Below are positions 1 through 56,898 of a DNA stretch of 64,000 bases, in pieces. How positions within the stretch are numbered: the stretch's first letter is position 1; each line of letters opens with the position of its first letter. The translations under genes were made by a program, and so were the position numbers. Under the pieces are notes generated by a model that searched no databases, was not told the DNA's origin, and saw only the letters and a program-made list of their open reading frames with translations. The stretch is from Bacteroidia bacterium. Its GTDB lineage: Bacteria > Bacteroidota > Bacteroidia > NS11-12g > UBA955. The stretch covers positions 1,298,733 through 1,362,732 of the forward strand of contig JBGAKR010000001.1 of NCBI GenBank assembly GCA_044224315.1. The letters run 5' to 3'.

Positions 1-1219
1 TTTTGCGTTCTTCTCGATTATATTCATATTCAATTACCTCCCATTTCTCTTGTAGCACTTCATAAACTTCACCGTTTATTTCAACCTTTATTTTATCTTT
101 ACTCAAATCTTTTATTGAACCTATTGTACCATTCACCCATTTTCGGCCTGAATCATTTTTTAACATCATGATTTGAGCATCCTTTTTTAATTCAAGTATT
201 TCATTCGTAGGATAGGCACTTTTTTCAAAATATCCCTCAATTTTTGCCCTGTATTCGAACGAATGCGAGTTAATATGTTCCAGTCTTCTTGCATTCTCTG
301 AATCTGCAATTTTATTGGTGCTAGCCAATGTAATGAACATATCATCCTTTCCAGATTGAAAACCATGAACCACACGCTTGTTTAATGAAACAAGATCCTG
401 ATGATTAAAGCGTCCCACACGGATATTGTTTAGCAAACGAATAAACTCAGGATCTTTCTGACGAAATATTTCGTTTAGTTCAATGACTGAAAAATCAGCA
501 GCGCCTAAAGCTGGTAAACTGAAGAAATATGGGCTTTTAAAGTGAGTCTCGAAATATTCCCTGGAAGCATCATCTGCAACTACTGGTGGAAGCTGGTACA
601 AATCTCCAAAAAAGAGCATTTGAATACCACCAAATGGTAATTTGTTATTTCTGTATTTCTGCAATGAAAGATTGATTCCTTCCAATAAATCCACTCTTAC
701 CATCGATATCTCATCTATGATGATCATTTCCAAGGCTTCAAACAAATCTCTCTTTTGATTGTCTGTTCGGATATCCTCTTCTTTTATCAGCCGTGGAGGA
801 AATTTGAAAAACGAATGGATTGTTTGTCCCTGAACATTAATAGCCGCAATCCCAGTTGGCGCTAAAACCACATGATTCTTTTTCGTCTTCGTTTGAAAAT
901 AACGTAACAGCGTAGATTTACCTGTACCTGCCTTTCCGGTGATAAAAGCTGATTTATTCGTCTGCTCCATCAAATCAATCGCCGCCTGAAATTCTTCGGT
1001 AATAATCAGGTTCTCAGGAAGCTGGCTTTCAATTTTTGCTTTCTTTTTCTTATCAACTTTTACAACATTGATGATTTCATCATCTTTGTTTTTTATCGAA
1101 GTTTGAGTATTAGCTGGTTTCTTGGTTTTTGATTCTCTATTTCCCGAGGAATTACCAGACTTGCGTCCGACGATTCCTCCTAACACAAGTGAAGTTATGA
1201 TTGCAATTACGATCCACAT
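1..1219 (-). CDS. PIF1-family SF1B DNA helicase with N-terminal transmembrane anchor (C-terminus runs off the window edge)
   Basis: Reverse-strand translation from the ATG at 1217-1219 gives MWIVIAIITSLVLGGIVGRKSGNS... then a Walker A (GKAGTGKST), LAPTGIAAINVQGQTIHS, IIDEISMV, GGIQMLFFGDLYQLPPV and FRQKDPEFIRLLNNIRVG, which is the canonical PIF1/RRM3 motif order. The stop of the upstream methyltransferase lies 3 nt upstream. The gene is missing from the ORF track because no stop falls inside the window. Confidence 0.8.
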   Translation of the reverse strand, partial: MWIVIAIITSLVLGGIVGRKSGNSSGNRESKTKKPANTQTSIKNKDDEIINVVKVDKKKKAKIESQLPENLIITEEFQAAIDLMEQTNKSAFITGKAGTGKSTLLRYFQTKTKKNHVVLAPTGIAAINVQGQTIHSFFKFPPRLIKEEDIRTDNQKRDLFEALEMIIIDEISMVRVDLLEGINLSLQKYRNNKLPFGGIQMLFFGDLYQLPPVVADDASREYFETHFKSPYFFSLPALGAADFSVIELNEIFRQKDPEFIRLLNNIRVGRFNHQDLVSLNKRVVHGFQSGKDDMFITLASTNKIADSENARRLEHINSHSFEYRAKIEGYFEKSAYPTNEILELKKDAQIMMLKNDSGRKWVNGTIGSIKDLSKDKIKVEINGEVYEVLQEKWEVIEYEYNREERK

Positions 1220-1221
1220 AA

Positions 1222-3090
1222 TCAAATTGTTTTTATCAATCCCTTGTCACTCAACCTCAGCTTGTCCACATTGCTGATGGCACTGTCCAGGCAGATGAAG
1301 ATGTCTCCTCCCTTCAAATTCAGGGCTACCACGGTTTCAGATGCAATTTTTTCATCCAAACAAACCAGCAGGCTATGATCACAGTATTCGCTGCTCACCT
1401 TGCGGATGGAATTGCTCATGATCTCTTCCAGCGGGGTGATACTTGAACAAAGCGTGAACCCTTCGAGGAGCATGATTTCAGTGAGGAGGCCGTCTTTGTT
1501 TACTTCTTCTACCAACGGGTTGGTATTGAACATGCCGAGCTGACTTTCGAGGTATTCAATTGATTCTGTTTGTAATGATGAAAATGTTTTAAAATTTGTG
1601 TAATTATATCGAAATACGATAAAACCATATTTATTGTCTGCCTTGTGAATCACTTTTCGAATCCTTGCCTTTGAGATATCCGTAATCCTTGAATATCCTT
1701 CTTTGAAAGCTATTTTACCCTCTTCAATTAATTCAGGAATTTGTATAGAAATCATTTGGCGATTGCCATTATCTTCATTATTTAATTCAAATATTGCTTG
1801 ACTTGAGCTTCCAGAACCCGCAAAGAAATCTAAAAATATTCCTTTTTTTTCATCAGCATCATTGATTACCATTGAAAACAAATACTTAATCAGTTCAACC
1901 GGTTTAGGAAAATCAAATACCGGTTTATCAAAAATTAAATTAATTTCTTTAGTTCCATCCTGATTAAAAGGACCATTCATGATTGACAATGGTTTACCCA
2001 TGCGAATATTGCCCGCCTCATCTTTCAAGTATTGCTTAAATCTAACGCTAAATTTACCATTACTTTCCTTAATTACAATTTCATCATTTTCATAGGCTTT
2101 CATTAATCGTTCCTTTGACCAAATCCACTGTTTATCAGGCCATATTTCTATACCTTCATGTATTAATGGATACACCAAATTGGGCCTATCATCTTTACTT
2201 TTAGTAGCTAATGGTTGTGTAATATACCCCCCTCGTGTTGAATACTTTTCATCCTTTAATTTATAATTTTTTATTTCCTCATCTGTAAGTTTAGATGCAA
2301 TACTTTCAATGCTTCCCTTGCTGTAACATAAAATATACTCATGCAAATTACCAAAGCCTTTTGTTAAAGCACCTGGGCCATATTTATTTTTCCAAGTAAT
2401 TTGTTGTTGATAGTTCTCTTCTCCAAAAATCTCATTCATCACTGCTCGCAGGTTGTGCACCTCATTGTCGTCAATACTCACGAAGATTACCCCATCTTCA
2501 CGCAACAGGTTGCGGGCCAGGCGCAGGCGCGGATACATCATGCTCAGCCACTTGCTGTGGAAGCGGCCATCACTGCGCTTGTTGGTGGTCATCGGCTTGC
2601 CCTCCTCATCCACCTGCCCAGTGCGGCGCAGGTATTCCTGCAGGGGTTCGGTAAAATCATCGTCATACACGAAGTCGTTGCCGGTATTGTACGGGGGGTC
2701 AATATAGATCATCTTCACTTTGCCGGCATAGCTCTTCTGCAACAGTTTCAGTACTTCCAGGTTCTCGCCTTCAATGAAGATATTCTTACTGTCGTTAACC
2801 CCATCGGTATCAGGCGTGCCATCGGCTTTCAGTCCCTGCCCCCAAACTGGTTCCAGTGCTCCCTGCGGTGGGATGGCCGCTGCCTTTCGGGCATCGCGCT
2901 TGCCGGGCCAGAAGAGGCCAAAATGCTCCAGTTCCGGGTCTTCCTCATCCTGTGCCCAGTTGCCCAGGTTCTGCCTCAGGGTTTCAAAATTGATCTTGCC
3001 ATCTTCAAAACATTCCGGGGCAATCTGCTTCAATTGGGCAATTTTAGCTTCGTCAAAAAAGTAATGGGGGCGTAGTCTTTCGTGGGACAT
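1222..3090 (-). CDS. DNA methyltransferase, Type III Mod-like beta-class (N6-adenine/N4-cytosine)
   Basis: 622 aa. LEVLKLLQKSYAGKVKMIYIDPPYNTGNDFVYDDDF (motif IV, DPPY) lies near residue 130 and FLDFFAGSGSSSQA (motif I, FxGxG) near residue 420. The IV...TRD...I order and ~620 aa size are typical of Type III Mod subunits. Confidence 0.85.
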   Translation of the reverse strand: MSHERLRPHYFFDEAKIAQLKQIAPECFEDGKINFETLRQNLGNWAQDEEDPELEHFGLFWPGKRDARKAAAIPPQGALEPVWGQGLKADGTPDTDGVNDSKNIFIEGENLEVLKLLQKSYAGKVKMIYIDPPYNTGNDFVYDDDFTEPLQEYLRRTGQVDEEGKPMTTNKRSDGRFHSKWLSMMYPRLRLARNLLREDGVIFVSIDDNEVHNLRAVMNEIFGEENYQQQITWKNKYGPGALTKGFGNLHEYILCYSKGSIESIASKLTDEEIKNYKLKDEKYSTRGGYITQPLATKSKDDRPNLVYPLIHEGIEIWPDKQWIWSKERLMKAYENDEIVIKESNGKFSVRFKQYLKDEAGNIRMGKPLSIMNGPFNQDGTKEINLIFDKPVFDFPKPVELIKYLFSMVINDADEKKGIFLDFFAGSGSSSQAIFELNNEDNGNRQMISIQIPELIEEGKIAFKEGYSRITDISKARIRKVIHKADNKYGFIVFRYNYTNFKTFSSLQTESIEYLESQLGMFNTNPLVEEVNKDGLLTEIMLLEGFTLCSSITPLEEIMSNSIRKVSSEYCDHSLLVCLDEKIASETVVALNLKGGDIFICLDSAISNVDKLRLSDKGLIKTI

Positions 3091-3099
3091 TTCGGTTTT

Positions 3100-5094
3100 T
3101 TATTTCTTAAAAAAGTAAGTTTCGTTCATTCGTGTGTCTTCTGCTTCAAAGGAATCAACCTTGCGGAAGTTCTCCACCTTCTCTCCGGGTAATGCCCATC
3201 TTTTCAAGGCAAAATCTATCATTTCCATTTCACGTTTGTCATTCATCCGCATGGATATTTTTCTATAATACTCATGTGTTTTATTCCTCAGCTTCCGGTC
3301 TTCATTTAAGTATTTTACCGCTTTTTTCAAATGATCTTCAAGCGCCGTTACCTGTCGCAATTTGATCAGACTAGACTGGTTATTGATCAATTCATTCACT
3401 TTTTCCTCAATCAGTCCATTCTGCAATTCTATGTTCTTTGCCAGTCCCATCAGTACAAAATTGCCCAGTCTGCGTTTTTCATGATGATTTGGCTCAAAAT
3501 ACTGCTGTAGGTTCTTTGATGCCCAAATATGTTCAAGGCTCAGCACATCATTCAGCATGGAATCTTCATCGTCTTTACGAACCAGTATTTCCTCTATATC
3601 AAACCGGGTTTTAAAAGATTCCTGCAGGTGTTCTTCGAACGATGCCAGGAAATACCGTATTCCTCTCCAACGGTAAAAATCATCCTTCTCATCTTTATCC
3701 AGTGTCAACGCCTGTACAAATTTCTTTTCAGGACAATAGTATTCAACTAAGTCTCTCAGATTTGCCTTCACCCAGTCAAGATGATTTCCATCGATAATCT
3801 TACCCGTTTTTACGGTGTGATTGTCATAATAATCTACACTTTGTGTGGTGTCCCAACCTTTATTCTTGTCCCAATATAATGAATGTGCAAACCAGAAGAG
3901 GTTACCTTGTTCAGTATCTGCCCTACCTGTAATTTTATTCAATACATATAACCTGAAATTCACCTTTTCTATCCATTCCAAAAATTCAACAACCACATCC
4001 GGGCTGTCAAGATAGGTCATCAAAGCCAGATACAGTGGCAACACTGATGCCTTGCTAGGCTGACAACGAAGTCTCTTCAGCCAATTTGAAATATCCGCTT
4101 TCCGATGACCTGCATAGTGCACATTGAAATGGTGCTGATTGAGCAGATATGCATAATGAAGGGCAGAAACTTCCAGAAATTCGACAAAGGCAGTAATCCT
4201 TTTAATGTGCCCGTCAATTTTGAGCATAACGGTTTCACCGGATGGATGCAATTCCTTGAGATTGGCATAGACATTCCAGCTCTCTGCCTTGCTCGAATCG
4301 TAAAATACAATATAGCAGTTGCGCAAGAAACGGTTTTCAGCATCGTTATTTGTCACCCCGGCTTTGCTGAGGTAAATCTGGATATTTCCCCATCTGCTGT
4401 TTATTTCCTCCCGAAGTGAATCTCTGCCATAGACGGAAGTGAGATAGATGAAGTAATTCTTTATTTTTTCCAGTTCTGATAGTTCTTTTCCCCTGTTATT
4501 GATAACCTCAAACATGATTCCGATATCTTTGGTATTATTTGGGGCATAACAGAGGAAACCGAGTTTTTTCAGAACAGTATTCAGAATTTCATCAACATCG
4601 GTTTTTTTGTCATTCAGCCATTCATTGAAGAATTTTTTGGCCCCAAAGATGCATTCATGAGATTTGATTTCAGCGGTTTTTTCCTTATTGCCGATAATGG
4701 TATCGTGAAAGAAAGATTTTGTCTCTTCATTGGTAAGTAACACCGGTCTCTCTTTTCCGATACCGCCCCTTTGTATATATTTTTCGTAAAGCGATATGTA
4801 CTTAGTGCTGTTCTTTTGATAAATGCAATTGAGTAAAATAATAATGGTGGTTATCCGCTGCTGTCCGTCTACGATTTCATAGACATTATTACCATCATTG
4901 GCAGGTGTCAAAACAATGGTACCGGTATAATGACTGTAATCCTTTTTTGCAACTTTGATAATGTCCGCCTTAAAATCTGCCAATTGAGCATCTTCCCAGG
5001 AGTATCCCCGCTGATAATCCGGGATGACGAAGAAGTTTTCGCTGATGATTTCTTCAAAAGTGAGTAGTCTGGAGATAAAGTTATTCATTTTCAA
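3100..5094 (-). CDS. DUF262 (ParB/Srx-like, DGQQR) + DUF1524 (His-Me finger) GmrSD-family nuclease-like protein, copy 2
   Basis: 664 aa. N-terminus carries FVIPDYQRGYSWE ... IVDGQQRITTI; C-terminus carries LSLEHIWASKN...GNFVLMGLAKNIELQN (HNH-like DUF1524). It overlaps the downstream nuclease ORF by 14 nt and ends 9 nt before the methyltransferase start. Confidence 0.8.
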   Translation of the reverse strand: MKMNNFISRLLTFEEIISENFFVIPDYQRGYSWEDAQLADFKADIIKVAKKDYSHYTGTIVLTPANDGNNVYEIVDGQQRITTIIILLNCIYQKNSTKYISLYEKYIQRGGIGKERPVLLTNEETKSFFHDTIIGNKEKTAEIKSHECIFGAKKFFNEWLNDKKTDVDEILNTVLKKLGFLCYAPNNTKDIGIMFEVINNRGKELSELEKIKNYFIYLTSVYGRDSLREEINSRWGNIQIYLSKAGVTNNDAENRFLRNCYIVFYDSSKAESWNVYANLKELHPSGETVMLKIDGHIKRITAFVEFLEVSALHYAYLLNQHHFNVHYAGHRKADISNWLKRLRCQPSKASVLPLYLALMTYLDSPDVVVEFLEWIEKVNFRLYVLNKITGRADTEQGNLFWFAHSLYWDKNKGWDTTQSVDYYDNHTVKTGKIIDGNHLDWVKANLRDLVEYYCPEKKFVQALTLDKDEKDDFYRWRGIRYFLASFEEHLQESFKTRFDIEEILVRKDDEDSMLNDVLSLEHIWASKNLQQYFEPNHHEKRRLGNFVLMGLAKNIELQNGLIEEKVNELINNQSSLIKLRQVTALEDHLKKAVKYLNEDRKLRNKTHEYYRKISMRMNDKREMEMIDFALKRWALPGEKVENFRKVDSFEAEDTRMNETYFFKK

Positions 5095-5917
5095 ATATAT
5101 TGGTGTTATTCGAATTCTTCAGGTTTGCATTCACCCATTCTTCCTGATCGGAATCGTTTCCGTAATCATCAAAATATTTGCTGAAACTGCCTTTTTCTCC
5201 TTTTCCTTTGCCGAGTGCATACTCACGGTAAGATGAACAAGAGAAACGGGCATCGCAGTTGCGGCAGATGCGGGTGGCGAAGAGGGTGTTGCTGCCTGTC
5301 ATTTTGCTCTGTAGCACGTCCAGTGGTGCCGGATGGAACTTCTTGTCCTCGATGAGGTCCACCACGCGGGCAAACTCCATCACCGTCTCCTGCACCTTCT
5401 CCTGCCGGAACGGAATTGAGATGAGGGGTTGCCATTTAGCCATTTCGTACTGTATACGGAAATGATCGTTCACGAGGTAGGCTTGTTTGAGTGTTTGGGG
5501 AAATGCTGTCGATATGATGGCTGTCTGATCAAGCTCTTCGTGGCGTAGTTCCTGCCAGATATGCGCATAAACGTTTAACTGTTGTTCATATAGTTCCTTA
5601 TTTGCGGCAATGTATTCCGGGTCATGGGTTTTGATGTCGTACATCCAGGTTTCTTCGTCTTCACGAACGATATCCACCACCCCTTCGATGTTGAAAGTTC
5701 TGCCTTTAGTAGTTTTTTGGTCGGGCAACGAGAGCTTCACTTCTGTATCTGTAACCTTTTGGGCTGTATCTCGCATTTTCTGGTAATAGAAGAGCACCTG
5801 TGTAAGGGCGAGTTGCTTGATATCTTCAGTAATGCTGTGCCCTCCTTCGAGCCGCATCATTTCGTAGTTGTCTTCAAAAAACTCACGTATTTTTTCTACA
5901 ATCTCAAAATCTTCCAT
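5081..5917 (-). CDS. PD-(D/E)xK RecB/Cas4-like nuclease module (motifs II/III plus C-terminal CxxCx5C)
   Basis: 278 aa. IEGVVDIVREDEETWMYDIKTH matches RecB-family motifs II (hhhDhh) and III (DxK). The C-terminus ICRNCDARFSC is the C-X2-C-X5-C triad of Cas4/AddB-type Fe-S nuclease domains. There is no N-terminal cysteine; the corresponding motif sits at the C-terminus of the upstream helicase ORF. Confidence 0.6.
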   Translation of the reverse strand: MEDFEIVEKIREFFEDNYEMMRLEGGHSITEDIKQLALTQVLFYYQKMRDTAQKVTDTEVKLSLPDQKTTKGRTFNIEGVVDIVREDEETWMYDIKTHDPEYIAANKELYEQQLNVYAHIWQELRHEELDQTAIISTAFPQTLKQAYLVNDHFRIQYEMAKWQPLISIPFRQEKVQETVMEFARVVDLIEDKKFHPAPLDVLQSKMTGSNTLFATRICRNCDARFSCSSYREYALGKGKGEKGSFSKYFDDYGNDSDQEEWVNANLKNSNNTNIFENE

Positions 5918-8544
5918 CAGGCATGTGCTTGTTTTTTCTTCTTTTCAGAAATGAGGAGGTGGTGAAGGTCTTCGATGGTTTGATGCACCAGACTGCCGAA
6001 GAACATGGTTTGTGAACGGGAAGGAACGAATCCATATTTGCGGAAAATCATGTATTTGCGCGGACATTGCTGATAATTGAGAAAATCTGCAGTGTATGAA
6101 TAGTTCTTTCCGAGTTCATCAGATTCCGTCTGTGACTCCGGCAATTCATTTAGCTTTACCGCACTCAGATATGGCAAGTGATCCTGCGAAAGAATGTCAA
6201 TGAATTCCTGAGATGTATTGGTTTTTCCAAGGTTGAAATGCGGCAGAATCGTGAGTTGCTTAGCCCTTGAAAGTCCGACATAGAAGACACGCATCTTGTC
6301 GTAATTTTTGATCTTGTCGAGGGGTTCGCCATCTTTCTGCAACAAATCGCGAATGATTATTTCCACAGGGTCGGCTTCCCTCTCATCTTTACGGAGGCTA
6401 CCGAGAACCACATAGGGGAATTCAAGTCCTTTTGCCTGATGGATGGTGAGGAAAGGTACTCGACCTTTCGGGAATGGATCTTCTTTATCTTCGAATTCGG
6501 ATTCACCCAGGCGGTAGATGGCATAGAGATAGGAACCGACGAATGTATTGATGTATTTATCATCTAGCAGGAATGATGCTGTGATGATGGCAGTGTACTG
6601 TTCCATGAAACGGGCCAGGTAATCGGTTATCATCCCAAGATTGATTACAGGGCCTTCATCGGTGCCATCTTCTGCAAGTTTGAACATCTGCTGAAAATGC
6701 CGGAACCCGTTTAATTGATAAAATAAGTCGAGGATGCTCCAGTCGAGACTGGTGACCCTGTTGATGACATAATTCAACTGAAAGGGTTGGCCAGCTTTTT
6801 CCCTGTTTTGAAGAATATAGATAAAATTCTGTTTTTGCAGCGTTGCCTTGCACTTACTGCTCAAACCAGATGCAGAAGCCAATGTGCGGAGCATCTCCAG
6901 TTTTACAGGCTTCTTCAGGTCCCATTTCTGTTTTGCCACTACTTTCATCAGGGCTTCATAATCGGCGCTGATGGCAGCAATATCCGCTTTTCTATCCTTT
7001 ATATAATCCGTCAACTGTGCATCAGCACCCATCAATTCTTTTGCAATTTCCAGACACTCCAATTGCCATGACCTGAATTCTTTTAAACCAGGACTGGCAG
7101 CACCCGCATGACTGGGTCTTCCTAATACTGAAAATATAAGTCCAAATATTTCCTTAGACTCCTGAACATCTAGAAATCTACCAGCTCGCGGCGCAAAAAC
7201 CTTGATGCCCAATTCATTTAATGCTTTTTCAAAAGCTTCTACTTTTGAGGATTTCTTCCCCTGTCCCTTTAGCGAAGGAAATAGGAATGCCACTTGATTG
7301 TAATCCTGGATTCTACCGGATTTTTTGAGATCATAAACAAACTGTGCGATATTTCCACAAACCTCTTCTTTCTGACCCATTGGTGTTCTGACAACCGCAG
7401 GAAAATCAGACTGATTATGGGGTATAATGTTCTTGTCCATCACCCGGTAATGTCCGGTTCCATCAGGTTTTTCCCAATCTGTCCGTAGAATAAAATCGTT
7501 ATAAAAATGAACAATGTTTCGCATTGAACGGTAGTTCGTATTCAGTGCTATTTTTTTTGGTTTTACACCAAGATATTTCATGCAGCGATCCTCAAACTCA
7601 ACTAGATTCTCAACAGTAGCGCCTCGAAAACGGTAAAGTGCCTGGTCGTCATCTCCCACCACACAGATATTCTTTGATTTTCTGGCTAATTCAAAATAGA
7701 TCTGTTCCTGTATGGCGTTGGTATCCTGATATTCATCTACAATGATGTGTTCATAAACACTACCGGAATGTTCAAAGGCATTGATCTTATTAAATGCCTT
7801 TTGTTGCAACAATGAGAAGTCTACAGTCTGTATTTTATCAGATTGTACAAGACTGCTACAGTAGAATTCATACATCTTGATCAGCTGATTCAGAAAGTCA
7901 TCAGCAGAGTTCACTTTTTTAGAATCCAGATTTTCTTCACTGAAACGATTAAAAAGTTTAATGATGGCGAGAACCGCATTATGCCGGGAATTGGACTTCT
8001 TCCCAGTTAAAAACTTGGTAATAGCTTCCTGTGCGATAATCTGTTCCGCTTCAGTATCTTCACCTTTGTGAAACCCGCCTGCAGTCAACATCTCTACCCA
8101 AAAACGGCGATTGTATAGTTTGAAATACTGCGCCAATTCATCCATTAGCACAGGTGCGCGGCCCCTGATGCCATCGTGTGTAAATCTCCTGTTGGAATCC
8201 ACCAGTATTCCCTGACAGATTGAGTGAACCGTGCCAATGGACATGTTGGTGATATCATATGCAACTCCGGTCTCGTTCGTGATTGAACCTAACAAGCCAC
8301 GTAGTCCTTCTTTAAGTTGGTGTGCCGCTTTTTCTGTAAAAGTAGCTAAAAATATATGAGATGGATCGACCTTTTCCCATACTATGAGGTTTACTGTCCT
8401 CCAAAGTAGTACCCGGGTTTTACCGGAACCGGGGCCGGCAGTCAAAAAAAGCGGACCATCTTTATGAAGAATTGCTGCCCGCTGGCTTTCGTTAGGATTG
8501 AATCCCTTTAATTGCCAGAAGAATTCAATTGGTGGTAAATGCAT
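5917..8544 (-). CDS. UvrD/Rep-family SF1A helicase with C-terminal tail carrying the first motif of a Cas4-like nuclease domain
   Basis: 875 aa. Walker A LTAGPGSGKTRVL, FLATFTEKAAHQL, HIIVDEYQDTNAIQ, VVGDDDQALYRFRGA. The tail ...YSYTADFLNYQQCPRKYMIFRKYGF...FFGSLVHQTIEDL resembles the Cas4/AddB N-terminal YxxCPRxY ... GxxhHxxhE motif. The stop overlaps the next ORF's start as TGATG. Confidence 0.85.
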   Translation of the reverse strand: MHLPPIEFFWQLKGFNPNESQRAAILHKDGPLFLTAGPGSGKTRVLLWRTVNLIVWEKVDPSHIFLATFTEKAAHQLKEGLRGLLGSITNETGVAYDITNMSIGTVHSICQGILVDSNRRFTHDGIRGRAPVLMDELAQYFKLYNRRFWVEMLTAGGFHKGEDTEAEQIIAQEAITKFLTGKKSNSRHNAVLAIIKLFNRFSEENLDSKKVNSADDFLNQLIKMYEFYCSSLVQSDKIQTVDFSLLQQKAFNKINAFEHSGSVYEHIIVDEYQDTNAIQEQIYFELARKSKNICVVGDDDQALYRFRGATVENLVEFEDRCMKYLGVKPKKIALNTNYRSMRNIVHFYNDFILRTDWEKPDGTGHYRVMDKNIIPHNQSDFPAVVRTPMGQKEEVCGNIAQFVYDLKKSGRIQDYNQVAFLFPSLKGQGKKSSKVEAFEKALNELGIKVFAPRAGRFLDVQESKEIFGLIFSVLGRPSHAGAASPGLKEFRSWQLECLEIAKELMGADAQLTDYIKDRKADIAAISADYEALMKVVAKQKWDLKKPVKLEMLRTLASASGLSSKCKATLQKQNFIYILQNREKAGQPFQLNYVINRVTSLDWSILDLFYQLNGFRHFQQMFKLAEDGTDEGPVINLGMITDYLARFMEQYTAIITASFLLDDKYINTFVGSYLYAIYRLGESEFEDKEDPFPKGRVPFLTIHQAKGLEFPYVVLGSLRKDEREADPVEIIIRDLLQKDGEPLDKIKNYDKMRVFYVGLSRAKQLTILPHFNLGKTNTSQEFIDILSQDHLPYLSAVKLNELPESQTESDELGKNYSYTADFLNYQQCPRKYMIFRKYGFVPSRSQTMFFGSLVHQTIEDLHHLLISEKKKKQAHA

Positions 8545-49881: not shown

Positions 49882-52800
49882 TTATCTTTTAATTACCAAA
49901 CGGCTGTTAATTACTGTGCCGTTTACATGCAGACTAACAATGTAAACTCCTTGGCTGAAGCTACTTACATTGATTTTACTACTATTGGCAATATCTACAT
50001 TTTGGTTGTACACTTCCCTACCATCTGCACCGTTAATTACAACTGAAGCAGTTTCTGTACCTTCGGGCCATACAATATTCAATTCTGTATTAGCGGGGTT
50101 TGGATACATTACAATAGTAGTAGGTACTAATTGGTTCAGTTTTGCAGAAACTACATAGGTAATGGTGCTATTGCCACCGGTTTCAACAACTCTTAAACGG
50201 TAGTAGTATTGTTTGTTGGTTTTGGCGTTGACATCCTTAAAGCTATAGGTCAATGGGCTTTCGCTGTTGCCGGCAGCAGTTAGTGTGCCGATCTTTACAA
50301 AGTCTTTGCCGTTTTCGCTGCGTTCCACTTCAAACCAGGCAGTGTTGTGCTCCTGGGCAGTAGCCCATTTTACCTGAATATATTTGTTGTCTACCCCTGT
50401 AGCAGTGAGATATAACAAGTCTATTGGCAATGGAGTAAGGCCTAATGGACCTGCTCCTCCGCCACCACCACTAAAGCCGTTTACAAAAAACTGTGCAAAG
50501 TAGTTTCCACCGCTGCGATCGCCAAGTACCCAGGTTGAGTCTGTAGCTACGGCACTATAGGTAATTACTTTAACATCATACTGGCTAAGAGCTGGTACAG
50601 CAGCATGTGCGGGTTTTGAGCCATTGATTACTTTCCAGAAACTTAAATCGTTGGCATTGAAAATACCAGGCAATCCGTTGGTGGTTAAAGTATTGTCGAG
50701 TGAGGAAATGTCACTGCTGTTGAAATAGAAGCGCACAGGTACTTTGCTGGTGGGCTGGGTGGTTGGTGATACATTCCAGGTGCGGTCCATTGCTGCATAT
50801 CCAAATGTATTGCCTACAAAACCTACATTGTGTGCGTAGAAATTGCTTCCGGTACTGTTGATTTTTAAGCTAATTCCATTATCCGGAATTACAGCGCCTG
50901 TACCCCCCAGTTTTAAGCTTAGTAACAGTTTGTTCTGGCAGTCGCAATAGTGCGTAAATCCGCTGGATGGGCTGGTATAGCTTGTAGTAGAGGTATAAGT
51001 ACCTGCTGCAGTGGCAACAGAATTGGTACTGTCGCACAAGGGGCTGCAACTTACACCTGTAGTTATAGGTCCGGCAGCAACCCAGTTACTGGAGCTACCT
51101 GTAAGGGCAAAGTTTGTGAGGGTACCAGAGTTTCCGTTTCCGCTGGCATCGTTCAGGGTGGTTACACTGGTGTTTGTGCCAGCGGCCAGGCCCTGGTTAA
51201 ACTGGAAGTAAGCGGCCAGGTTCTTTTGAGTGCCGGTTAACTCACAGTTCATATTGTGCTGAATTTCGCTTTGGCACAAAACCCTGCTCCATACGCGCAA
51301 TTCTTCCATTTTACCGTCGAAATTGTTACATACACAAGAGCTGGGCTGCTGTCTGCCAATAGTTACAATACCATTGTCAGGACCCGGACTGGCAACTGGG
51401 CCAAACAGGCCGCTGCTGTGGGTACTTAATACAGCACCATCCAGGTAGAAAACTACTTGCTGTGCATTGGCATCAAAAGTGGTGGCAATGTGGTGCCATG
51501 CTCCGGTTGGAACGCTGCCTGAAGAATAAACCCAACCCATAGAAGGATTGTATAAGCCTAAACCGGTGTTTCCGTTAGGATGGGTTTGGAACAGGTATCT
51601 GTAATCACCTTTATCAATAATGGTGTTGTTTTTATTGTCATCGAGGTAAACCCAGGCTTCGATGGTATAGGTTTTATCCAAATCCATGGTGCCGTTGTCG
51701 GGGATACTTACATAGTCATAAGTAGAAGGGCTGATGTTAGAACCGCCGGGGTTTGTATTTCCCCAACCGTCAAAGTGCAGCACACCAGCTGGGGTTACAC
51801 TGTTGCCTTGTAATGCGAAGTCGTATGCAGCTTCATCACAATCATCACTGTTAATGGTAAGTGTAGCAGTTTTGGTGCCAGTGGTGGTAGGCAGGAAAGT
51901 AACAGTTACAGTAGCAGAGCCACTGGCAGCTATGGGACCGGCTGGATTTAATGCACCCACGCTGAACAGAGTAGGATTGGCACCAGAAAGGCCGATGCTG
52001 GAAATGGTAAGCGGAGAAACACCCAGGTTTTCGATGGTATAAGTGCGGGTAAATGGAGTATTTACGTTCACATCGCCAAAGTCGGTATGGTCTGCAGCAC
52101 TAGGAGTAACATCGCCATCGGTTATGCTCACACTATTGCCTTTTACATTAATTTCTGGGCCATAAACACCACATGATATGCCATTGGCAACTGCACCGGA
52201 AGATACCCAGTTAGAAGTGGTGCCGTTCAGGGCCATGTTATTTAAAGTTCCAGTTCTTGAATTGCCAGAAGCATCGTTTAAAGAAGTTACACCGCTGTTG
52301 TTTCCTTCGCCAATACCTTGGTTAAAGTGATAGTTGGCCAATAAACCACTGGCAGAGGTTGGGATTTCACAACTCATATTGTTCTGAATTTCACCTTGGC
52401 ACAAAACGCGGTTCCAAATACGTACTTCATCAATGGTGGAAGTACTGAAACCTTGTCCGTCGTCAATCCAGCCGCCAATAGTAAGTGCTTTGGATGTGTT
52501 GGTGCTGATCGTACCTGTTAAAGTAGAAGTACCTACCAATACACCATTGATATACATTTTATGGTTGCCCGATGCATAAGTAATGGCGATGTGGTTCCAT
52601 ACACCATTTCCGGCAGCAGCTGTGCTGGTTATTGCAGTAGTGCCATAAGCATAGGGGTTCCAAATAATTTTTGCAGTTGCAGGGTCAGAGCCATTGAGAG
52701 CAATCAGCTGATTGGTGAATACTCCGTTGCTTTGACGGGCCAAAACAGCACCATAGCTGGTGTTGAGGTAGCCAGCATCCTGGGTTCCGGTCCATTTAAC

Positions 52801-55800
52801 CCACATTTCTATTGTACCACTTTGCAGATTATCCAATCCGCCACCAGATGGCACAGAAACATAATCATCACCACCTACAAAATTCAATGCAGAACCGGGG
52901 AAGTTGGTACCACCATTGGCGTTTGCAAGTGCAAATGGGCTAAAGGTTGTAAAGTTAACGCTGGAGGTAATGCTTCCGCTGCCATTGGCAGATCCGGTGC
53001 CACCTATATTGTCCCAGTTTCCGCCATTGCCTTTTACCAGACGCAGGTTGCTGTTGTCGGTAACACCATCATCGGCTCCGTAAAACAATTGCACACTGGC
53101 AGCGCTGAGGTTACCGGTTGCAGAACGGTCGATTTGCCAGTAACGTACAGGCGACACTTTGTCTACAGTACCTGGCAGGGTCAGTCCCAATGTTTGGGCG
53201 CTTATGTTTTTAACTTCGGCGGTATAGTCAAAGTTGGCAGCAGAGGTATGGGTAACATTCAGCAAAGCCTGGCGATATTGGCTGCCGGCCCCTATGGGGA
53301 AGAAAATATTGTTGTTTACACCATTGTTTGCAATCATGCGCACCATGGGTCCGCTTACAAACGAGTTGCTGTTACCACCACTCACACCCACAGTTCTGTC
53401 TACACGGAGCAGATTGGATGAGGTGGTAATCATTTTACCATTTTGGAAAGAAATAGATTGTGAAGCACCGGCATCGAGGGTACAGGTAGAAAGCAGTGTA
53501 ACATTATTAGCCGCTTTATCTACGATAATTGAACCGTTAAACAAGGCAGTAGCGCCGGTCAGGTCAAAGTTTTGGGCATTGCTGCCAGTGAAAATGAGTT
53601 TGCCGTTACCACCATCAAAAGTAGAGGCTACGGTAACATTGCCACCTGCGGTTACAAGGTTGTTGCTGATACCATCGGTATAGGTAAGGTTGTTTATTAC
53701 ATCCAGCGAGTCGCCGGCACCGTTTGCAAAAATGGGGCTAGAGCATCCGGTGGTTCCGTTAAACTGAAAATTATAGAATTGGGTTGAAGGCAATACATCC
53801 ACAGTAAATGTATATTGGGTGCAGGGCAGATTGGGGTTTAGCACCACAGTACCATTGTTGTGGCTGAATGTACCACCCATATGGTTAAACAGAGTTTGAT
53901 TGTTGTTCCAGATTCCGCCAATATTCATATTGCCGGTGGGTGCAGTAAAGGTACCCGATTTAAGGGTAAAAGACTGCATGTTAAAGTTGGTAGTTCCGCC
54001 TGCAGCAGAGAATGTGCCGGATGGTTTATCAACAATAATTTGTATGGTGCGGGCCGAGCCTGCAGCCTGGGAGTATGTTTGAGCGCCGTTACCGTTTGCA
54101 GTAAGTGTACCAGTTCCACCGTCTGAGGTTGCTGCGATAGACAAGTTACCCCAGAAAGTAAAATCACCATTGATAATACCATCGGTATGGGTAAAGTCGC
54201 CAGCCATTTGAATTACATCACCGCTGGCAGTAGTAATAATTGGTGAGGAGCAACCGGTAGTGCCGTTAATTACCATGTTGTAAAACCAGGTTGATGGCAA
54301 TACATCCAGGGTAAAAGTACGCTGGGTGCAAGGCAGGTTGGGATTGATTACCACTGTACCGCCGTTGTTGTCAAATGCACCACCACTATGTAAAAACAGG
54401 GTTTGGTTTGCATCCCATATTCCGCCAATGTTCATATTGCCTGTTGGGGCAATAAACATCCCGTGAATAAGGCTGAAAGTTTGGCAGCTAAGGGCAGTGG
54501 TTCCGGTTTGGGGCGACAATACACCGGAAGGTTTATCAACTATAATTTTGCAGGTACGGGCAGCACCGGCAGCATATACGTATTTTTGGAAACCTGTACC
54601 TTTTGCAGTAATAGTTCCGGTACCACCATCCGAAGTTGAACCAATGGTTAAATCTCCATTAAAATCAACTAAACCATTTAAGATACCATGGGTATGGGTA
54701 AAGTTATTCTGCACATTTACCACATCTCCGCCCGCGGTTGTAATAATGGGGCTAGAGCAACCGGTTGTACCGTTAATAATCATGTTATAGAAAACGGTGG
54801 TTGGCAATACATCCAGCGTATAGGTGTATTGAGTACAAGGCAGGTTTGGGTTAATTTCAACAGTACCGTTGTTATGGGTAAAGGTTCCACCTGCGTGGTT
54901 AAAGAGGGTAGCATTGCTGTTCCAGAAACCACCAATATTCAGGGTGCCACTGGGGGCGGTGTAGCTGCCTGCCTGCAAATCGAATGATTGGCAGAAGAAG
55001 TTCATAGGGCTGCTTGCCGGGGTAAAGGATCCTGAAGGTTTGTTTACCACTATAAAACCTGTGCGCGCTGTGCCGGTTTGTGAATAGGTTTGGTTGCCAC
55101 TGCCATTAATGGTTAATGTTCCATTTCCGCCATCAGCACCAGCCAACAAAATCAGATTGCCTTTGATACTTGCACTTGAATTTAAAATACCATCGGTATG
55201 GGTAAGGTCGTTGGTTACATCCAAAACATCGCCACTGGCATTAACAAATATGGCTGGAGAGCAACCGGTAGTGCCTTGGAAAGCGACATTGTAGAATGAT
55301 GTGGAATTAATTACATCAATGGTAAATGTGCGTTGGGTGCAGGGAAGGTTGGGATTAAAAGTAACAGTTCCGTTATTATGGCTGAAAGTTCCGCCGCTGT
55401 GAGAAAATAAAACAGCATTGGCATCCCAGGTTCCGCCTATATTGAGGTTGCCACTTGGGGCGGTAAAATTACCAGACTGCAAATCAAAAGATTGGCAGAA
55501 AAAATCCATTGGGCTGCTTGCAGGGGTAAAGTTACCTGAAGGTTTGTTTACCACAATTAATCCGGTGCGTGATGTACCGGTTTGAGAGTAGGTTTGATTG
55601 CCGGTGCCATTAATAGTAAGTGTGCCATATCCACCGTCGGCGCCTGCCAAAAGAATCAGATTGCCTTTGATGTTGGCGCTTGAGTTTAAAATACCATCTG
55701 TATGGGTGAGGTTATTGTTTATATCCAGCACATCACCACTGCCATTTACAAAAATAGCAGGCGTACAACCAGTGGTTCCTTGGAAGGTAACACTGTAAAA

Positions 55801-56898
55801 AGCAGTAGTATTTAATACATCAATGGTAAGTGTGCGTTGTGTGCAAGGCAGGTTGGGGTTAAATACCACCGTGCCGTTATTGTGCGAAAAATTGCCACCG
55901 GTATGGTTAAACAAGGTTTGGTTGGCGTCCCAGGTTCCACCAATATTCATATTGCCGGATGGAGCGGTAAAATCGCCGGCTTGTAACACAAACGACTGGC
56001 AGTACAAATCCATGGGGCTGGTTGCGGGGGTAAAGGTTCCGCTTGATTTGTTTACGTTTAATATTGCTGTGCGGCCTGTGCCGGTTTGAGTATAGGTTTG
56101 GCTTCCGGTTCCGTTTATAGTTATTGTGCCATAGCCACCATCTGCACTGGCCCCAACGGCAAAGTTTCCGGTAAGTTCTGCAGTACCGTTAAAAATACCA
56201 TCGTTGTGCGTGAGGGTGTTGGAAACCATCAAAACATCGCCGCTGCCAGTTGCTATAATTTGGGGTGAGCAACCGGTAGTAGTTGTAAGGGTAACATTGT
56301 AAAACTGGGTAGAAGACCCGTTAAGGTCCAGGGTATGCGTAAATTGGGTGCAACCGCTACCGGTATTGAGAAAGAATGTACCGTTATTGTGATTAAAGGT
56401 ACCCGCAGAATGGGTGAATACAGTAGAGCTTGAAACCCGGGTTCCGCTAATGGTAAATGTACCTGAAGTGCTGGTAAATGTGCCACCCGACAAGTTGAAA
56501 ACACCTGTAGTGTTTATTGTAAAGCTCTGGCTGCCACCAGCAAATGTACCTGAGGTTTGGGTATAACCATTGGCACCACAGGTAATTGTGAATGAATTTT
56601 GCGATAATGTACCGCTATATCCATTCATCAAAATACCAGAAACAGAAACGTTCATGTCAATGCTACAGTTGCCATTTAAACCGCCCGTTCCATCAAAGAT
56701 GGCTACGTCGCCGGCTCCTGGAACAGAGGCTCCACTTGCACCGCCCGAGCTGGCCGACCAGTTGCCCGTATTGTTCCAATTAGATGCCCCGGACGAAACC
56801 CAGTAGCGGTTAGCCGAAAAGGCAGGAATAGAAAATGCAATCGCAACAAAGAGGAGTGTTAGGACTGATTTTCTTTTTGAGTTGATTTTTAATCTCAT
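49882..56898 (-). CDS. giant T9SS cargo protein (2338 aa), tandem paralog of the 2141-aa gene
   Basis: Same module architecture. The C-terminal ~450 aa are about 90 percent identical to the neighbour. CTD MYPNPANTELNIVWPEG...GVYIVSLHVNGTVINSRLVIKR. Confidence 0.85.
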   Translation of the reverse strand: MRLKINSKRKSVLTLLFVAIAFSIPAFSANRYWVSSGASNWNNTGNWSASSGGASGASVPGAGDVAIFDGTGGLNGNCSIDMNVSVSGILMNGYSGTLSQNSFTITCGANGYTQTSGTFAGGSQSFTINTTGVFNLSGGTFTSTSGTFTISGTRVSSSTVFTHSAGTFNHNNGTFFLNTGSGCTQFTHTLDLNGSSTQFYNVTLTTTTGCSPQIIATGSGDVLMVSNTLTHNDGIFNGTAELTGNFAVGASADGGYGTITINGTGSQTYTQTGTGRTAILNVNKSSGTFTPATSPMDLYCQSFVLQAGDFTAPSGNMNIGGTWDANQTLFNHTGGNFSHNNGTVVFNPNLPCTQRTLTIDVLNTTAFYSVTFQGTTGCTPAIFVNGSGDVLDINNNLTHTDGILNSSANIKGNLILLAGADGGYGTLTINGTGNQTYSQTGTSRTGLIVVNKPSGNFTPASSPMDFFCQSFDLQSGNFTAPSGNLNIGGTWDANAVLFSHSGGTFSHNNGTVTFNPNLPCTQRTFTIDVINSTSFYNVAFQGTTGCSPAIFVNASGDVLDVTNDLTHTDGILNSSASIKGNLILLAGADGGNGTLTINGSGNQTYSQTGTARTGFIVVNKPSGSFTPASSPMNFFCQSFDLQAGSYTAPSGTLNIGGFWNSNATLFNHAGGTFTHNNGTVEINPNLPCTQYTYTLDVLPTTVFYNMIINGTTGCSSPIITTAGGDVVNVQNNFTHTHGILNGLVDFNGDLTIGSTSDGGTGTITAKGTGFQKYVYAAGAARTCKIIVDKPSGVLSPQTGTTALSCQTFSLIHGMFIAPTGNMNIGGIWDANQTLFLHSGGAFDNNGGTVVINPNLPCTQRTFTLDVLPSTWFYNMVINGTTGCSSPIITTASGDVIQMAGDFTHTDGIINGDFTFWGNLSIAATSDGGTGTLTANGNGAQTYSQAAGSARTIQIIVDKPSGTFSAAGGTTNFNMQSFTLKSGTFTAPTGNMNIGGIWNNNQTLFNHMGGTFSHNNGTVVLNPNLPCTQYTFTVDVLPSTQFYNFQFNGTTGCSSPIFANGAGDSLDVINNLTYTDGISNNLVTAGGNVTVASTFDGGNGKLIFTGSNAQNFDLTGATALFNGSIIVDKAANNVTLLSTCTLDAGASQSISFQNGKMITTSSNLLRVDRTVGVSGGNSNSFVSGPMVRMIANNGVNNNIFFPIGAGSQYRQALLNVTHTSAANFDYTAEVKNISAQTLGLTLPGTVDKVSPVRYWQIDRSATGNLSAASVQLFYGADDGVTDNSNLRLVKGNGGNWDNIGGTGSANGSGSITSSVNFTTFSPFALANANGGTNFPGSALNFVGGDDYVSVPSGGGLDNLQSGTIEMWVKWTGTQDAGYLNTSYGAVLARQSNGVFTNQLIALNGSDPATAKIIWNPYAYGTTAITSTAAAGNGVWNHIAITYASGNHKMYINGVLVGTSTLTGTISTNTSKALTIGGWIDDGQGFSTSTIDEVRIWNRVLCQGEIQNNMSCEIPTSASGLLANYHFNQGIGEGNNSGVTSLNDASGNSRTGTLNNMALNGTTSNWVSSGAVANGISCGVYGPEINVKGNSVSITDGDVTPSAADHTDFGDVNVNTPFTRTYTIENLGVSPLTISSIGLSGANPTLFSVGALNPAGPIAASGSATVTVTFLPTTTGTKTATLTINSDDCDEAAYDFALQGNSVTPAGVLHFDGWGNTNPGGSNISPSTYDYVSIPDNGTMDLDKTYTIEAWVYLDDNKNNTIIDKGDYRYLFQTHPNGNTGLGLYNPSMGWVYSSGSVPTGAWHHIATTFDANAQQVVFYLDGAVLSTHSSGLFGPVASPGPDNGIVTIGRQQPSSCVCNNFDGKMEELRVWSRVLCQSEIQHNMNCELTGTQKNLAAYFQFNQGLAAGTNTSVTTLNDASGNGNSGTLTNFALTGSSSNWVAAGPITTGVSCSPLCDSTNSVATAAGTYTSTTSYTSPSSGFTHYCDCQNKLLLSLKLGGTGAVIPDNGISLKINSTGSNFYAHNVGFVGNTFGYAAMDRTWNVSPTTQPTSKVPVRFYFNSSDISSLDNTLTTNGLPGIFNANDLSFWKVINGSKPAHAAVPALSQYDVKVITYSAVATDSTWVLGDRSGGNYFAQFFVNGFSGGGGGAGPLGLTPLPIDLLYLTATGVDNKYIQVKWATAQEHNTAWFEVERSENGKDFVKIGTLTAAGNSESPLTYSFKDVNAKTNKQYYYRLRVVETGGNSTITYVVSAKLNQLVPTTIVMYPNPANTELNIVWPEGTETASVVINGADGREVYNQNVDIANSSKINVSSFSQGVYIVSLHVNGTVINSRLVIKR
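52835..53745. repeat. ~0.9-kb near-identical block, copy 2 (see 46190-47100)
   Basis: Same evidence as copy 1. Confidence 0.8.

Follow-up and report, generated by a model that had tools for sequence, protein, structure and literature searches.

Two overlapping genes of a Bacteroidia bacterium appear to encode one Cas4-like nuclease domain on a UvrD-type helicase

RESULTS

Overlapping genes for a helicase and a nuclease

A 64,000-nucleotide (nt) stretch of the genome of a Bacteroidia bacterium (GenBank assembly GCA_044224315.1, contig JBGAKR010000001.1, positions 1,298,733 to 1,362,732; hereafter the window) contains a UvrD-type helicase gene whose end overlaps the start of a gene with nuclease motifs. 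These open reading frames (ORFs) are referred to as ORF A and ORF B; both lie on the minus strand, and all coordinates are those of the whole window unless a locus of another genome is named. The two ORFs and their junction are:

5917-8544, minus strand: ORF A, UvrD-type helicase, 875 amino acid residues (aa)
5081-5917, minus strand: ORF B, the rest of the nuclease domain, 278 aa
5915-5919, minus strand: TGATG stop/start overlap (ORF A TGA at 5917-5919, ORF B ATG at 5915-5917, base 5917 in common)
5932-5937, minus strand: A6 run within the lysine-rich linker SEKKKKQAHA at the end of ORF A

The minus-strand junction reads ...GAAAAGAAGAAAAAACAAGCACATGCCTGATGGAAG, and the coordinates read from the sequence agree with the original prediction, which had noticed a TGATG overlap sharing one base near an A6 tract. 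The run lies 15–20 nt ahead of the ORF A stop. Relative to ORF A, the frame of ORF B is −1, and upstream of the ATG it is open for just nine codons (KEEKTSTCL). Addition of one A (or loss of two) within this nine-codon stretch would give a fused protein of ~1153 aa, while loss of one A does not fuse the frames; the earlier claim that a one-base slip produces a fusion of ~1150 aa thus holds for an added base but not for a deleted one. ORFs A and B together contain eight homopolymers of at least six bases, including an A8, and the A6 run is unexceptional among them. The A8 run, at 7551-7558 inside the helicase gene, is longer than the one at the junction.

A helicase with a conserved C-terminal tail

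ORF A matched the Pfam families UvrD-helicase (PF00580; 186 bits, E-value 1e-54) and UvrD_C (PF13361; 71 bits), and AAA_19 was matched as well. The translation contains Walker A (GPGSGKT), DEYQD and the remaining helicase motifs; both the N- and the C-terminal UvrD helicase domains are present with their ATPase motifs. Judged by its sequence, ORF A is a superfamily 1 (SF1) helicase of the UvrD/PcrA type with an active-looking motor. Its scores were far under the equivalog cut-offs of PcrA, UvrD and Rep, and it is therefore regarded as a paralogue of these proteins. The end of the protein has the following features:

5938-6102, minus strand: helicase tail, aa 815-869 (YSYTADFLNYQQCPRKYMIF...FGSLVHQTIEDLHHLLI), first strand, first cysteine and helix 1 of a Cas4/RecB-type nuclease domain
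6064-6066, minus strand: TGT codon of Cys827, read from the sequence, predicted first ligand of an iron-sulfur (Fe-S) cluster
5971-5985, minus strand: His854-Glu858, motif-I helix (G-x-L-V-H-x-T-I-E-D), from alignment A2 (below)

Cys827 sits in QCPRKY, which is followed by GSLVHQTIEDL. The best 120 homologues of ORF A (55–100% identity) are nearly all 856–889 aa long, and the tails that were sampled all end in the same motif. Column conservation over 117 helicase homologues averaged 0.93 for tail residues 826–865, as compared with 0.72 for the whole protein and 0.89–0.93 for the core motifs; the ten-residue linker after the tail scored 0.46. The tail is conserved to the same degree as the motor motifs.

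One nuclease domain divided over two chains

Residues 823–869 of ORF A aligned to positions 9–58 of the 247 positions of PF12705 (PDDEXK_1) with 17.2 bits (E-value 0.005), and residues 37–227 of ORF B to positions 92–246 with 33.2 bits. When the last 72 residues of A were joined in silico to B, a single match to positions 9–246 was obtained (61 bits, E-value 2e-16), comparable to the 59.8 bits of the natural fused relative P0246. A match to the whole of PF12705 above the gathering score needs A and B joined; neither protein gives it by itself. The original prediction had seen the N-terminal signature of a Cas4/AddB-type nuclease in the terminal 60 aa of the UvrD-like ORF, and had proposed that a single Fe-S PD-(D/E)xK domain is spread over two polypeptides. 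The tail, on whose alignment under profile search that proposal had been made to depend, does align, with C827 and the motif-I helix, and the profile halves of the two chains are complementary. The remaining motifs are found in ORF B:

5630-5674, minus strand: motifs II and III, with D82 (GVVDIV) and D94-x-K96 (YDIKTH), next to which stand Q113 and Y117 (alignment A1)
5237-5266, minus strand: C218-X2-C221-X5-C227 triad (CRNCDARFSC), invariant in alignments A1 and A2, codons checked

D82, D94, K96, Q113 and Y117 are invariant across 26 homologues of ORF B (alignment A1, which lacks the Met, so that its numbering is one lower than that of ORF B). The only cysteines of ORF B are C218, C221 and C227, none of them near its N-terminus, as had been predicted along with motifs II and III; its homologues in alignment A1 never have an N-terminal cysteine of their own. 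The set of four cysteines, one N-terminal plus C-X2-C-X5-C, is complete solely across the chains, with C827 from A and the triad from B. In AddB and AdnAB, such 1+3 cysteines form an Fe-S 'staple' around the nuclease. Among 26 joined or fused sequences from many phyla (alignment A2), C24, H51, D154, D166, K168, C290, C293 and C299 (joined numbering) were invariant, as was the catalytic Q, and E55 and D56 were nearly so. A workable block alignment of helicases, tails and nucleases was obtained with one natural bridging fragment (P0391) and at most 16 helicase fragments.

In an AlphaFold model that combines B with the C-terminal 140 aa of A, the tail helix packs onto the core of B, with predicted local distance difference test (pLDDT) values of 80–94 for the helix and 77–96 for the B core. 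The fold is that of a PD-(D/E)xK nuclease, for which a fold comparison was used in place of a PDB sequence search. As far as motifs and profile coverage indicate, the two coupled chains jointly carry a complete, intact nuclease domain on an intact UvrD motor.

The split as the conserved state

ORF B has 1788 homologues, of which the best 120 (67–100% identity) are nearly all 273–282 aa long, with exceptions of 267 and 380 aa. Gene order was surveyed with one genome per species, which returned 80 loci. The nuclease is a separate ORF directly behind a helicase in all 80, cut at the same point, and its frame is closed upstream in every case (open frames of 175–466 aa, none of fused length); the preceding helicase bears the tail in 79. 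The loci come from at least 10 phyla, with Bacteroidota, Cyanobacteria, Chloroflexota, Bacillota, Acidobacteriota and Planctomycetota among them, and include Spirochaetes, Fibrobacterota, Deinococcus, Myxococcota and one bacterium of the candidate phyla radiation (CPR).

Junctions were scored by a strict motif search in 70 of the 80 loci. Stop and start are coupled in 55 (ATGA in 44, TGATG or TAATG in 11), and 6 have other overlaps. The genes are separated by 0–30 nt in 6 loci (with GGAGG in L047 and L049), by 31–100 nt in 2, and by a 684-nt insertion in 1. Relative to the helicase, the nuclease is in the −1 frame in 57 loci, in the +1 frame in 10 and in frame in 3. Runs of A at the junction occur in some Bacteroidota relatives only and range from A4 to A8; other relatives have no run there, and the genes are separate in all. 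Junction sequences are unrelated across the loci, and no slippery site is conserved among them.

The 684-nt insert lies between the two genes in a Chloroflexota metagenome-assembled genome (MAG; L022, 9272-9959 of that locus). It holds a small GIY-YIG-like ORF, is flanked by repeated sequence and resembles a small mobile element that landed exactly at the junction. The nuclease gene is damaged in two loci from Cyclobacteriaceae MAGs: L076 has a mid-gene frameshift (9996-10600) and L001 has no clear start (~10018-10055), which could be real decay or MAG errors.

These data bear on the readings by which the overlap would be an accident. One is that an ancestral fused gene of ~1150 aa was broken by a one-base change in the A run and is now a pseudogene. 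One added A within 5932-5937 does restore a single frame, and fused relatives exist. However, homologues of the same length are found for both ORFs in hundreds to thousands, the cut point is common to all 80 loci, whose junction sequences are unrelated, the catalytic and cysteine residues are all intact and invariant, and the few fused forms are dispersed among split ones in a rough tree; a pseudogene is very improbable. An error of sequencing or assembly, which homopolymers invite on some platforms, has next to no probability here: an independent assembly (Logan, run SRR28480385) agrees with the window at every one of 10,516 bases, among them the junction and the A6, and the same gene boundaries are found in isolate genomes and in a finished plasmid.

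The two overlapping genes are, by this comparison of loci, a genuine conserved two-gene state and not a broken gene. Among the four explanations first considered, a genuine two-subunit split is favoured by the common cut point; the frameshift pseudogene, the homopolymer switch (below) and the assembly error fared poorly. Homologues consistently encoded as two ORFs with the same boundaries had been named as an argument against the split domain. They were found, but they contradict the accidental readings and not a domain shared by two chains, so that this condition was mis-specified.

Fused relatives and the A6 run

When ORF B was searched exhaustively against representatives at 50% identity, single-chain proteins of 1077–1565 aa were found in which the tail motif is contiguous with the nuclease. 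Such fused proteins make up ~8 of 75 full-length matches, and in a rough neighbour-joining tree the few fused forms are scattered among the split ones. In P0246, the Met with which ORF B starts is still present after the linker. A query spanning the junction gave a single spanning match among the best 120, which was a degraded fragment, and this indicates that fused forms are rare. Fused and split forms look interchangeable from their sequences, as would be expected if the separate chains assembled to give the structure of the fused one.

Another reading is a phase-variable switch, in which the A6 run, by changing its length, flips the locus from a fused (on) to a split (off) state and back. 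The homopolymer does lie inside the nine-codon window in which both frames are open. An A6 run is short for slipped-strand switching, however, and it is one of eight runs of at least six bases. It encodes a weakly conserved lysine-rich linker (0.46), and it is A6 in both assemblies. Close relatives show no repeat-length variants that switch the frame; with A4 to A8 or no run at all they always have two ORFs, each in frame. We therefore give the switch very little credence.

Recoding was considered as well, that is, slippage of ribosome or polymerase on G-AAA-AAA giving a minor fused product beside the separate chains in this lineage. ORF B is in the −1 frame, AAA-AAA permits A-site tRNA-Lys slippage, and A6–A8 runs stand at the same spot in several Bacteroidota relatives. 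On the other hand, there is no canonical X-XXY-YYZ heptamer, the length and position of the run vary even in the closest loci, the nuclease is in the +1 frame in 10 loci and separated by in-frame stops in 3, and all three frame relations occur, so that neither a conserved slippery heptamer nor a fixed frame is seen. Recoding is thus improbable. The conserved split with its varied junctions, together with the identical independent assembly, leaves practically no room for a pseudogene, a fault of assembly or a recoding site that is conserved; the conserved split, the variable A runs and the identical A6 leave a homopolymer switch very unlikely.

Gene neighbourhood

ORFs A and B are part of a tight co-directional string of genes in the order DUF262, ORF A, ORF B, GmrSD, Type III Mod (modification) and PIF1-like helicase. 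The neighbours are:

8576-10423, minus strand: DUF262 (GmrSD_N) gene, 31 nt upstream of ORF A (Pfam GmrSD_N, E-value 3e-32; PADLOC HEC-05)
3100-5094, minus strand: GmrSD-type gene (DUF262 + DUF1524), overlapping ORF B by 14 nt (Pfam GmrSD_N and GmrSD_C; PADLOC HEC-06)
1222-3090, minus strand: Type III Mod methyltransferase (Pfam N6_N4_Mtase; PADLOC MTase_III, E-value 1e-155)
2-1225, minus strand: PIF1/RecD-like helicase, cut by the window start (Pfam PIF1, E-value 6e-30)

On the longer contig (L081), a Type III Res (restriction) gene (988 aa, ResIII + RE_endonuc) follows the PIF1-like helicase just outside the window. In the 80 loci the genes usually stand in the order helicase, nuclease, Mod and Res; among the four genes downstream of the nuclease, Mod and/or Res was found in 57 loci and both in 38. 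A GmrSD gene occupies the same position in L008 and L005, and the six-gene order of L008 (Algibacter aquimarinus) is identical to that at the window. This recurrence makes the order A-B-GmrSD-Mod-PIF1-Res look like a conserved six-gene variant rather than random insertions. A four-gene form lies beside Lamassu on a Bacillus cereus megaplasmid, where RefSeq annotates four separate genes with generic names. ORF B had no match in the phage collection, and matched only two megaplasmids, both from Bacillus cereus.

Several other gene arrangements were seen. Defence-type extras interrupt the Type III operon: GmrSD comes between nuclease and Mod, the PIF1/RecD-like helicase separates Mod from Res, and a second DUF262 gene lies upstream (2-5094 and 8576-10423 of the window; L081, 9298-13746; L008, 10831-19201). 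In Anaerolineae and Firmicutes loci (L045, 3877-7314; also L047, L049 and L072), genes for a HerA-like ATPase and a NurA-like nuclease lie directly upstream of the helicase, co-directional and with overlapping stops and starts. In the cyanobacterial loci L025 (5606-7203), L035, L040, L029 and L032, one of them on a Leptolyngbya plasmid, a gene for a ParA-like ATPase and an ORF of ~240 aa without a family match come behind the pair, and Mod and Res are absent.

Comparison with known helicase-nucleases

UvrD-Cas4-like fusions (the pfam12705 branch) have been described with Type III Mod/Res as their commonest neighbourhood in defence islands, and an ancillary role in defence was proposed for them; one independent operon of unfused UvrD and Cas4-like genes, mostly from Clostridiales, was also reported, with no break inside the nuclease domain mentioned (Hudaiberdiev et al. 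2017, PMC5704561). The present pair has in common with these fusions the UvrD-type motor, the Cas4-like Fe-S nuclease and the Type III Mod/Res neighbourhood, and the fused relatives of ORF B (P0246, P0297, P0311 and P0370) have the architecture of the fusions themselves. It differs in that two chains are present here and in all 80 loci, and in that the cut falls within the nuclease domain, behind helix 1.

The order of an SF1 motor followed by a RecB-family nuclease is shared with AddAB, AdnAB and RecBCD, whose nuclease domains ranked with the best fold matches. These enzymes consist of two or three large subunits, each having complete nuclease or helicase-like domains of its own, and their cluster lies within one chain, whereas ORF B, with 278 aa, is a partial domain. 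Scores against the equivalog models were 111 bits for AddA (cut-off 708) and 72 bits for RecB (cut-off 696), which places the pair outside the AddAB, RecBCD and AdnAB families. Cas4 (SSO0001 and type I-C Cas4) and the nuclease domain of Dna2 are single-chain; in the present pair the first cysteine and motif I are on the other polypeptide, and no CRISPR context was found in the window. Like Gabija GajB and other UvrD-type defence helicases, ORF A matches the PADLOC models GajB and RTasHel through the common UvrD core; unlike in Gabija, the matches are limited to this generic core and no GajA partner is present. ORF B gave only weak PADLOC matches, to DruK and Cas4, and neither PADLOC nor NCBIfam holds a model specific for the pair. 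Literature searches returned nothing relevant on Cas4-like domains that are split, or on clusters shared between the subunits of a helicase-nuclease. The type of system is known; the conserved mid-domain split with 1+3 cysteine ligands appears to be undescribed.

Other genes in the window

A gene for a 1553-aa RHS-repeat protein (10983-15644) is followed, via an ATGA overlap, by a 163-aa ORF (10495-10986) that carries one RHS repeat and a sorting domain for type IX secretion. This ORF was considered as a second split and rejected: since it has its own signal-peptide-like start (MNKKSIFFILLLVLF), it probably encodes a protein in its own right rather than a tail that has broken off. A gene for a 338-aa SocA/Panacea antitoxin-domain protein (16701-17717) lies in a stretch of lower GC content (~0.35), with the RHS gene on one side and the large secreted proteins on the other. 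Very large genes (996 to 2338 aa) stand in a row on the minus strand from 20935 to 59852. The five of these that were scanned, which do not include the largest (49882-56898, 2338 aa), all end in type IX sorting domains (Por_Secre_tail or CHU_C); such domains fit the Bacteroidota origin of the window.

DISCUSSION

We propose that ORFs A and B encode an obligate, translationally coupled two-chain helicase-nuclease, in which the chains complement each other into one nuclease domain; we put the probability of this reading at about 0.8. The tail of ORF A would provide the strand, the first cysteine and the helix with G-x-L-V-H-x-x-I-E-D, and ORF B the remainder, that is, motifs II and III, QxxxY and C-X2-C-X5-C. 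The stop/start overlap would couple translation of B to that of A, and docking of B on the A tail would complete a single nuclease domain. In the assembled pair, motor and nuclease would follow each other in the layout of AddA, AdnB and RecB.

The tail could instead be a relic, with ORF B acting alone as a three-cysteine nuclease, or with another partner, and merely adjoining the helicase. ORF B on its own does exceed the Pfam threshold and retains motifs II and III. We consider a relic unlikely: few parts of the helicase are as conserved as the tail, in which Cys and His are invariant, homologues of ORF B never supply an N-terminal cysteine themselves, and the gene directly ahead of ORF B encodes a tail-bearing helicase in all but one of the surveyed loci.

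For the complementing two-chain enzyme, an Fe-S cluster would be ligated 1+3, by C827 of A and by C218, C221 and C227 of B, and would staple the chains together; that the cluster bridges both chains is slightly better than an even bet. If it does so, neither chain alone would be a competent nuclease, and the nuclease would work only when attached to the motor. A stronger form of the proposal, in which the cluster is an inter-subunit staple whose insertion assembles the nuclease on the motor and licenses it there, has about an even chance of being right. The gene context suggests that the pair may act with the Type III system of the same gene string, unwinding and degrading foreign DNA from breaks made by Res, comparable to what RecBCD and AddAB do after restriction.

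Some observations weigh against this picture. The ORF A tail alone, at 17.2 bits, is under the Pfam gathering score of 22 bits. Both cysteine loops had pLDDT values below 50 in the AlphaFold models, and sequences in the PDB gave no significant relative, either by phmmer with the joined sequence or with the 26-sequence profile. The binding of A to B, like the cluster, is something we infer from these profiles, alignments and models. The link to Type III restriction is drawn from gene neighbourhood, and Mod/Res genes were absent or unseen in 23 of the 80 loci, some of them truncated at the end of a contig.

The accessories of Type III systems that were predicted in 2017, UvrD-Cas4-like proteins with a role in defence, have remained uncharacterised as far as we could find, and the locus described here represents a form, found very widely, whose nuclease domain is divided over two chains. 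Public annotation hides the split under the names 'ATP-dependent helicase' and 'PD-(D/E)XK nuclease family protein'. A practical warning follows from the junction, since a stop/start overlap next to a homopolymer can mimic a frameshift and yet be native and conserved. If the cluster does bridge the two chains, this family would offer a simple experimental handle on the role of the Fe-S cluster in nucleases of the AddB, Cas4 and Dna2 type, and an example of a nuclease that is kept inactive until it is on its motor. The pair would then be a natural two-piece version of such a nuclease, in which the debated role of the cluster (structural, or redox or iron sensing) could be read as subunit association, and DNA degradation associated with Type III systems might depend on the integrity of the cluster.

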